NCBI RefSeq assembly: GCF_003334785.1
Contig: NZ_QOWV01000017.1
Strand: one strand, 5' to 3'
Source of the DNA: Escherichia coli
Lineage (GTDB): Bacteria > Pseudomonadota > Gammaproteobacteria > Enterobacterales > Enterobacteriaceae
DNA length: 64,000 nucleotides
Below the pieces are notes generated by a model that was not told the origin of the DNA, did not search any database, and saw only the letters and a list, made by a program, of their open reading frames with translations. Both the position numbers and the translations under genes were made by a program. This document shows, piece by piece, positions 34,521 through 35,557 of this stretch (the first letter of the stretch is position 1; every line of letters begins with the position of its first letter).

Positions 34521-34570
34521 TTCAAAATTCGACGGATTAACGATATTTGTCTGATTAATAATCAGATCGA

Positions 34571-34605
34571 ATTAATGTTGGTGTGTTTATAACACCAACA
34601 TTAAT
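34571..34605 (+). terminator. 14-bp perfect hairpin followed by TTTT, downstream of rpmJ2
   Basis: attaatgttggtgt-gtttata-acaccaacattaat then tttt; AT-rich stem so strength uncertain. Confidence 0.4.
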
Positions 34606-35557
34606 TTTCCTGGGGATATATTCTTCCTGTTCATTTGAGGCCAACTGCCTGACGTTTCTCTCCGAATATTCCATTATCTTAATGTTGACTTGTTGACCAG
34701 CTTCGCCCCTGTATGCTGGCATCAACCCTCTTTTAGACTGAACACGCCACTCAGTCTCCTCCCTTTGCGGCGCAGCCTGCATTTTCACTCAAACTGTTAA
34801 GATGATAAATGTGGTAAATCTGTTGGTACTAACATAAAAACGTTTACGCCACAGGAACAGTCTGATCCACCGGTAACCCCGTCGCCGACGTTCGAGTGCC
34901 AGTTAGAGTAACGCGCACAGATAACTGAATGCAGTGCCCTGACAAAAAGGCCATCGTTCCTGTGACAGCTGGCAGCCTTCGTTTAACTTCACTTAATCTG
35001 GCTCTTGGGGGCTTACCGAACAGATGACGTACATACGCCCGTTCAATTTTCCATTACTTATTGGAATGAACACCTGTAACCATTTTGTGCGGCATGTTAA
35101 TCCATTAAAATATCTTACTGATTGGCAAATCATCTTCAATGACAGCTCATCATAGTTTTATATTCTATCCCTTACCCTTAAAACTTATTTTTTTACTAGT
35201 CCATCACACAGCGCATTAAGACTATTCCTAACACTTCAGGGCAAAGTTCCTGACCAATATAAAATGCAAGTAAGAATTGAACGTTATATTGCCAATAACC
35301 TTATGAAACCAAATGTCTTTTTCTTCTTATCAAAAAAGCAATATTTTCAGTTTTTCTAAATATTGACTTAACCATTGAATTCCTTTTCCGTTCACATATT
35401 GACACTCATCGGGAAAAAAAACATAAATTTAAGCCCAATCGAAAATAATTAAACTTAATCTCGTTTAACCTTTATTGATATGTACTACGTATCTTATTTA
35501 CTTCCGGTTTACTAAGGAAACTGAATGCACCTGTAAAAATTACAGGTTTGGAAAGTA

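Follow-up and report, generated by a model that had tools for sequence, protein, structure and literature searches.

In Escherichia coli, ykgM (rpmE2) and ykgO (rpmJ2) form a Zur-repressed ribosomal-protein operon of zinc starvation, and about 1 kb downstream of it, in the same direction, lies the ecp (mat) operon. Here, we describe the junction between these two units in a stretch of 64,000 nucleotides of E. coli DNA (contig NZ_QOWV01000017.1; hereafter the window), and in particular two tandem palindromes, a short palindrome at 34551-34565 and a long hairpin at 34570-34606, that follow ykgO. Several described systems invite comparison. Intrinsic terminators of the symmetric (bidirectional) type combine an A-tract, a stem and a U-tract, a layout that the ykgMO stem, with AAUUAAU on its 5′ side and AUUAAUUUU on its 3′ side, reproduces. 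Palindromic operators are represented at the locus itself by a perfect 18-bp palindrome, GTTATGTTATAACATAAC, at 34088-34105 just upstream of the ykgM start, which we take to be the Zur operator of ykgMO. The regulatory region of ecp is described in reviews as being under the control of EcpR (MatA), IHF and H-NS, and a partnership between MatA and RcsB has also been reported in the review literature. [quoted passage not shown]

The region under study differs from MG1655 at 2 positions in 1.24 kb and is 100% identical to strain JKHS016. Between the ykgO stop (34520) and the GTG (35558) of the long ecpR open reading frame (ORF) lies a gap of 1,037 bp, in agreement with the gap of about 1 kb given in the original prediction, which had read it as a single AT-rich leader of ecp that begins with both palindromes. 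The gap is instead made up of three unrelated pieces: the ykgMO 3′ untranslated region (UTR; 34521-34612, + strand, 29% GC), which holds both palindromes; an Escherichia-specific spacer (34613-35076, 47% GC) outside the conserved ecp unit; and the ecp (mat) regulatory region (35077-35557, + strand, 31% GC), which is kept with the ecp operon across genera. With a window mean of 50.5% GC, the description as AT-rich holds for the two ends and fails for the middle. Both palindromes belong to the 3′ end of ykgMO and not to the ecp control region. As for what they do there, we consider it likely that they make up the 3′ end of the ykgM-ykgO operon, with the hairpin as its RNA stem-loop or terminator and the short palindrome as a by-product.

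The assignment to ykgMO is carried by a comparison of the DNA flanking ykgO in 80 loci encoding YkgM relatives. In every non-Escherichia genus with ykgMO among them, the DNA 3′ of ykgO is unrelated to the window. In Escherichia albertii (locus L010), ykgM and ykgO are followed by a different gene of 747 aa and there is no ecp, and the hairpin is kept; homology to the window runs from ykgO to ~34635 and then ends. Seen from the other side, the DNA upstream of ecpR in Klebsiella pneumoniae, Enterobacter mori, Klebsiella huaxiensis and Pantoea shows no homology to the palindromes or the hairpin region, nor does that of Klebsiella, Enterobacter or Pantoea show any to the spacer at 34613-35076. In K. 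pneumoniae, homology to the window upstream of ecpR begins at 35077; in E. mori it begins at 35214, and in K. huaxiensis it is limited to the core promoter (35397-35438). Because E. albertii has inherited the palindromes along with ykgMO although it lacks ecp at this locus, and because they are absent before ecpR elsewhere, they are part of the ykgMO unit. Their position agrees with this: they lie 30-86 nt past the ykgO stop and ~830 nt upstream of the ecp promoter, and the interval that they span (34551-34606) falls ~470 nt outside the conserved boundary of the ecp regulatory region.

The long hairpin (34570-34606, + strand) has a stem of 15 bp, a loop of 7 nt and a calculated stability of about -18 to -20 kcal/mol as RNA. 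Perfect 14-bp arms are found at 34571-34584 and 34592-34605, so both palindromes sit where the original prediction had placed them, and in this strain the arms extend to 15 bp (34570-34584 and 34592-34606). The hairpin begins 50 nt past the ykgO stop on the coding strand, and its stem has a calculated energy of -18.3 kcal/mol here. In a palindrome census of the window, it was the sole perfect 15-bp stem, while composition-preserving shuffles gave 0. Folding of the 108-nt 3′ region yields -30.1 kcal/mol (z = -3.9). Of 5426 complete E. coli genomes, 5057 carry the element in a single copy; just 108 records have the perfect stem of 15 bp, and MG1655 carries a G.U at the stem base. A repeat of the repetitive extragenic palindrome or bacterial interspersed mosaic element type (REP/BIME) was considered and rejected, as the hairpin occurs at one place per genome in those 5057 genomes.

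How the hairpin has changed among relatives indicates which strand matters. The comparison covered seven haplotypes, of which E. coli contributed five and E. albertii one; the remaining one came from L011, a divergent Escherichia lineage. Over 16 pairs in these haplotypes, 95.5% of the cells show standard pairing, despite exchanges in which one pair appears as U-A, U.G or C-G and in another A-U replaces G-C. G.U wobbles account for nine cells; an RNA from the - strand would have C.A mismatches at these places, and in 7/7 haplotypes it is the + strand RNA that folds with the greater stability (-20.0 versus -14.2 kcal/mol for the common B2-type allele). Since pairing is kept through exchanges and wobbles and the + strand folds more stably, the hairpin is selected as RNA on the ykgMO strand, and neither as a DNA dyad nor for ykgL, an ORF annotated on the opposite strand.

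This hairpin is most likely the intrinsic terminator of ykgMO or a stem-loop at the 3′ end of its mRNA, so the link between the hairpin and rpmJ2 termination, implicit in the original prediction, is the part of it that the evidence favors. As a + strand stem-loop, it would define and protect the 3′ end of the ykgMO mRNA. Its upper stem consists of 8 pairs, GUUGGUGU/ACACCAAC, 4 of which are G-C, followed by AUUAAUUUU; as a terminator, it would most likely be of the A-tract/stem/U-tract type, with A/U-rich flanks that extend the stem. A U-rich tail, ATTAATTTT, can be read from the sequence at 34600-34608 (+ strand), the first seven bases of which form the 3′ base of the stem, and every E. coli sampled (n=20) has TTTT(C/T)C. 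Like described intrinsic terminators, the stem-loop lies on the coding strand, 50 nt past the last stop of the operon, and is kept by compensatory and wobble changes. Termination at the hairpin is treated here as probable, as is its mechanism.

Published expression data fit a ykgMO transcript that ends at the hairpin. In RNA sequencing (RNA-seq) of E. coli Nissle with calprotectin, ykgM, ykgO and 'ykgL' were the top three induced genes, with log2 fold changes of 9.7, 9.5 and 9.3, respectively (i.e. ~600-850-fold), and mean counts of ~370,000, 51,000 and 16,700. The ykgL annotation shares ~57 nt with the ykgMO 3′ UTR, at the end of the latter, and ecpR and ecpA do not appear in the Nissle supplementary files examined, including the table of significant genes. 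This pattern argues against substantial read-through from ykgMO into ecp.

Several observations weigh against a terminator, or against the strength with which it can be claimed. The stem is GC-poor (5/15 pairs are G-C) and AUUAAUUUU overlaps the lower stem, so that formation of the full stem leaves just UUCC as a tail. No clear U-tract is found in L011 or E. albertii, although the stem is kept in both; because these sister lineages keep the stem without a U-tract, canonical intrinsic termination is not a conserved property of the element. In these respects, with its low GC, its short free U-run and the U-tract missing from relatives, the hairpin departs from described intrinsic terminators, and a simple consensus scan for promoters and terminators, whose rule fixes the placement of the T-run, did not call it. 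No mapped ykgMO 3′ end was found in the literature examined, the Term-seq, TERMITe and ExcludonFinder supplements being without a ykgO or ykgL entry. The Nissle RNA-seq is gene-level and possibly unstranded, and the absence of the ecp genes from its supplementary files is an indirect argument. Lastly, the covariation comes from 7 haplotypes of three lineages, and 40/500 shuffles reach the score of the hairpin alone, which leaves these controls merely suggestive.

The strongest rival explanation is that the hairpin is a protective 3′ stem-loop: transcription would stop further downstream with the assistance of Rho, and 3′-5′ exonucleases would trim the transcript back to the hairpin. The retention of the stem without a U-tract in E. 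albertii and L011 speaks for such a role, and the stem-loops of Rho-dependent transcripts (PMC6061677) are similar in being stable structures at an mRNA end, where the ykgMO hairpin, too, would block PNPase and RNase II. The DNA past the hairpin has a negative GC skew (-0.275 over 34600-34799, C > G), which we take as compatible with a Rho utilization (rut) site. Unlike those protective stem-loops, however, the ykgMO hairpin has a U-rich tail in E. coli, where AUUAAUUUU follows or overlaps the stem and is kept in 20/20 sampled sequences, and no data on Rho dependence were found for the ykgMO locus. A protective stem-loop after Rho-dependent termination is thus a serious alternative, though we regard it as clearly the less likely one, and termination at the hairpin itself stays the preferred reading.

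A second rival goes beyond the hairpin and holds that the 3′ UTR (34521-34612) as a whole is a functional structured RNA, either a small RNA derived from the 3′ UTR in zinc starvation or a binding site for L31B/L36B. RNAalifold predicts three consecutive helices in the 3′ UTR, the first of which is a small stem-loop of 7 pairs at 34525-34548 (+ strand); the short palindrome forms the middle helix and the long hairpin the last. In helix 1, 3/7 pairs change on both sides yet stay paired, with 95% of cells paired, and over the three-helix model 5 pairs are changed on both sides versus 1.7 +/- 1.1 in shuffles, of which 5/500 reach 5. The middle helix keeps 8/9 pairs in L011, around a 7-nt loop, and the several hundred-fold induction of ykgMO would make any such RNA plentiful. 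Yet the six sequences that served to derive the structure were also those on which it was tested, one helix-1 pair is broken in most members of the L011 lineage in a wider sample, and the middle helix is broken in E. albertii (4/9 pairs). The 3′ UTR is also unrelated in all other genera with ykgMO, and it lacks a long, Hfq-type U tail. With Rfam 15, permissive scanning of 33500-36300 gave no real match, the sole hit being a chance-level mir-15 (15.9 bits versus a gathering score of 57.3). We consider this rival improbable. The fuller version, in which an Escherichia-specific RNA of ~90 nt with three stem-loops becomes abundant once Zur repression lifts and acts as a 3′-UTR-derived regulator or L31B/L36B binding site, appears a shade more doubtful still; if true, it might tie zinc starvation to the expression of the neighboring adhesin.

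The short palindrome had been singled out in the original prediction as a possible protein-binding site. The sequence CTGATTAATAATCAG at 34551-34565 forms a 7+1+7 palindrome; one further base on each side makes it 8+1+8, TCTGATTAATAATCAGA, at 34550-34566 (arms TCTGATTA and TAATCAGA around a central A), and it lies 4 nt from the long hairpin. Under the operator explanation, it would bind a dimeric DNA-binding protein, acting as a roadblock or as a distant regulator of ecp. The dyad is exact and invariant in 20 E. coli sequences, which stand for few independent haplotypes. Near-matches to it number 7 in the window versus 1.75 in shuffles, two of the seven being the site itself, read on each strand, and an overlapping 15-mer (34549-34563) fits, by inspection, the very degenerate Fis consensus. 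Perfect 7+1+7 palindromes are common, however, with 10 in the window versus 4.6 +/- 2.3 in shuffles, so that this one is not exceptional. Its setting is a 3′ UTR, with the ecp promoter ~830 nt away and the ykgM promoter ~450 nt upstream of it, and the consensus scan called no promoter-like site near it. Operators of Zur, LexA, Cra, ArgR, Lrp and IHF were considered as candidates and rejected, as the palindrome bears no recognizable match, by inspection, to their consensus sequences.

Outside E. coli, the dyad does not hold together. Its halves are split by 6 extra bases in L011 and by 4 in E. albertii, and the outgroup halves also differ (CTGGTTA...TAATCAT; TTGGTTG...TAATCAT); being split and altered in both relatives, the exact dyad is specific to E. 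coli. Within the species, 17 nt are missing from strain 1428 (NZ_CP023366.1, locus L116, 395-410) between two direct repeats (GATTAAT...GATTAAT), so that the short palindrome is without its right half while the hairpin is complete. Among records of the 68-nt element, fourteen fall in the 80-90% identity band and may hold changes like that of strain 1428. As an RNA helix, too, the short palindrome shows no compensatory changes in the RNAalifold alignment. It resembles palindromic operators, such as the Zur box at 34088-34105, in being an exact dyad of 15-17 bp, but it stands away from a promoter, whereas the 18-bp Zur box stands at one, and it is neither conserved beyond E. coli nor enriched over chance. 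It thus shows no sign of function, an operator role is unsupported and very improbable, and the palindrome is probably incidental. On the preferred reading of the 3′ UTR, it would be an E. coli-specific by-product of a small indel, forming at most a weak second stem-loop. The Zur box is the one palindrome near the locus with an obvious protein-binding role.

The final rival concerns ykgL, a 75-aa ORF annotated on the minus strand by RefSeq/PGAP at 34555-34782, across both palindromes, so that the earlier statement that the gap holds no credible ORF does not agree with the annotation. The last ~17 codons of ykgL are the hairpin and the short palindrome read backwards. If ykgL were a real gene, the palindromes would be its coding 3′ end and the hairpin would terminate ykgL too; its annotation both in K-12 and by PGAP, a hairpin symmetric enough to fold on either strand and the published overlap of ykgL and ykgO transcripts (ExcludonFinder lists the pair as convergent in MG1655 RNA-seq) speak for this, but it is highly improbable given that the ORF is marked as frameshifted or truncated in 6/8 diverged E. 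coli and picked up by gene callers at just 4/10 further loci (three of 75 aa, one of 63 aa), that its homologs are confined to Escherichia (42-103 aa) and match no Pfam or NCBIfam family, that no part of the gap is less conserved than its region, and that the G.U wobbles in the hairpin favor the opposite (+) strand. This evidence backs the earlier view in substance: ykgL is an orphan ORF, probably no functional gene, and a probable annotation artifact that reads through the putative terminator. The appearance of ykgL as a top zinc-regulated 'gene' and as an excludon partner of ykgO may just reflect its overlap with the ykgMO 3′ UTR.

Beyond the ykgMO 3′ UTR, the rest of the gap consists of Escherichia-only filler, with ykgL as a decaying orphan ORF, followed by the already characterized ~480-bp, H-NS-bound ecp region. 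Within the filler, at 34630-34780, conservation relative to L011 reaches its lowest level in the gap. Weak terminator-like calls were made at 34766-34781 (+) and 34969-34950 (-), 2 where 1.8 are expected, and the call at 34766-34781 (+) is altered in B2-type E. coli.

The remaining piece, 35077-35557, is the regulatory region known for ecp/mat (EcpR/MatA with RcsB, IHF and H-NS), complete with EcpR boxes and a sigma-70 promoter. It takes up less than half of the 1-kb gap and, unlike in the original framing, the palindromes lie outside it. In every genus compared, with Pantoea and K. huaxiensis included, ~500 bp of 18-35% GC stand directly before ecpR, with host-typical GC beyond. A 398-bp 'promoter island' between ecpR and ykgL is H-NS-bound according to all compiled chromatin immunoprecipitation (ChIP) studies and lies in a predicted genomic island (PMC3661553 Table 1); by coordinate conversion, we infer that this published island corresponds to ~35192-35589 of the window. 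The notion of an H-NS-silenced, AT-rich fimbrial region therefore applies to 35077-35557, and does not extend to 34521-35076 or to the palindromes. The IHF consensus WATCAANNNNTTR has 0 matches in the gap, and the H-NS high-affinity motif occurs there at chance level, which makes it uninformative.

A candidate site for EcpR/MatA lies at 35217-35251 (+ strand), with TTCCT-N17-TTCCT at 35225-35251. This arrangement is unique in the window (0.07 expected) and does not vary among 9 E. coli; 4 genera share its core and spacing. The sequence TAAGACTATTCCTA, which contains the first TTCCT box, presumably represents an RcsAB-like box, given its resemblance to the RcsAB consensus. An RcsAB-like sequence around the first EcpR box fits the partnership reported for MatA and RcsB. 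The two boxes themselves we take to be those reported for EcpR by Martinez-Santos et al. 2012.

The core promoter of ecp is found at 35399-35429 (+ strand), with TTGACA at 35399-35404, a 19-nt spacer and TAAATT at 35424-35429. Neither TTGACACTC (from 35399) nor TAAATT varies among 7 sequences from 4 genera. The consensus scan that passed over the hairpin missed this conserved promoter as well, its rule not admitting the 19-nt spacer. The TTGACA-TAAATT spacer measures 17 nt in Klebsiella, Enterobacter and Pantoea and 18 nt in most Escherichia; in the window, MG1655 and JKHS016, it reaches 19 nt because an A8 run (35414-35421) stands in place of A7. Such a stepwise worsening of the spacer could play a part in the poor expression of ECP/Mat (the E. 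coli common pilus) reported for K-12-like strains.

From the promoter position, transcription of ecp is predicted to start at ~35437, which is 121 nt upstream of the GTG at 35558; this is reportedly also the distance between transcription start and GTG in the abstract of the Martinez-Santos study of 2012. The supplement of the EDL933 Cappable-seq study gives no start-site coordinate for ecpR, and its primer naming indicates that the annotation of enterohemorrhagic E. coli (EHEC) uses the GTG start. Two start codons are in use for ecpR: the K-12 'matA' annotation begins at GTG 35558 and gives MatA/EcpR 196 aa, while PGAP begins at ATG 35606 and gives 180 aa. The GAGG Shine-Dalgarno sequence and ATG 35606 are conserved across genera, whereas the frame of GTG 35558 is broken by a 1-nt indel in K. 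pneumoniae and reads GTA...TAG in L011; the NCBIfam EcpR model spans residues 17-195 of the GTG form. The K-12 start of ecpR thus looks too far upstream. Given this conservation of GAGG and ATG 35606, which the GTG frame does not share, the 5′ leader would run from 35437 to 35605 (+ strand), ~169 nt to the ATG, as against 121 nt to the K-12 GTG. Either way, the '1-kb leader' of the original prediction shrinks to a transcribed leader of about 120-170 nt.

The genes around the gap are ykgR (33652-33753), ykgM (34117-34380), ykgO (34380-34520), ecpR and ecpA (from 36223). The census that singled out the 15-bp stem also recorded three further perfect hairpins in the window, each with a stem of at least 12 bp, at 26842-26873, 28172-28203 and 43245-43277. 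Some E. coli carry extra, diverged copies of ykgM (L31B), at 2501-2833 of locus L107 and 2501-2779 of locus L108, without ykgO and without the hairpin; one copy neighbors urease accessory and transposase-like genes, and the other a TraG_N gene. These look like mobile copies of the zinc-independent L31. The YkgM variants P0135 and P0131, tried as a source of more Escherichia lineages, gave such mobile-element copies of ykgM and were unusable.

As a statement about the palindromes and the ecp region, the finding is ordinary and largely known, the H-NS-bound, AT-rich ecp region having been published before. It assigns the palindromes to ykgMO rather than to ecp and narrows the true ecp control region to ~480 bp, which adds little beyond a tidy annotation. 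One practical consequence concerns insulation. As ykgMO and ecp are co-directional and zinc limitation raises ykgMO expression several hundred-fold, the hairpin can be seen as an insulating element: termination there would shield ecp from the very strong ykgMO transcription of zinc-starved cells. In this ordinary function, the hairpin should prevent the common pilus from being turned on by zinc starvation.

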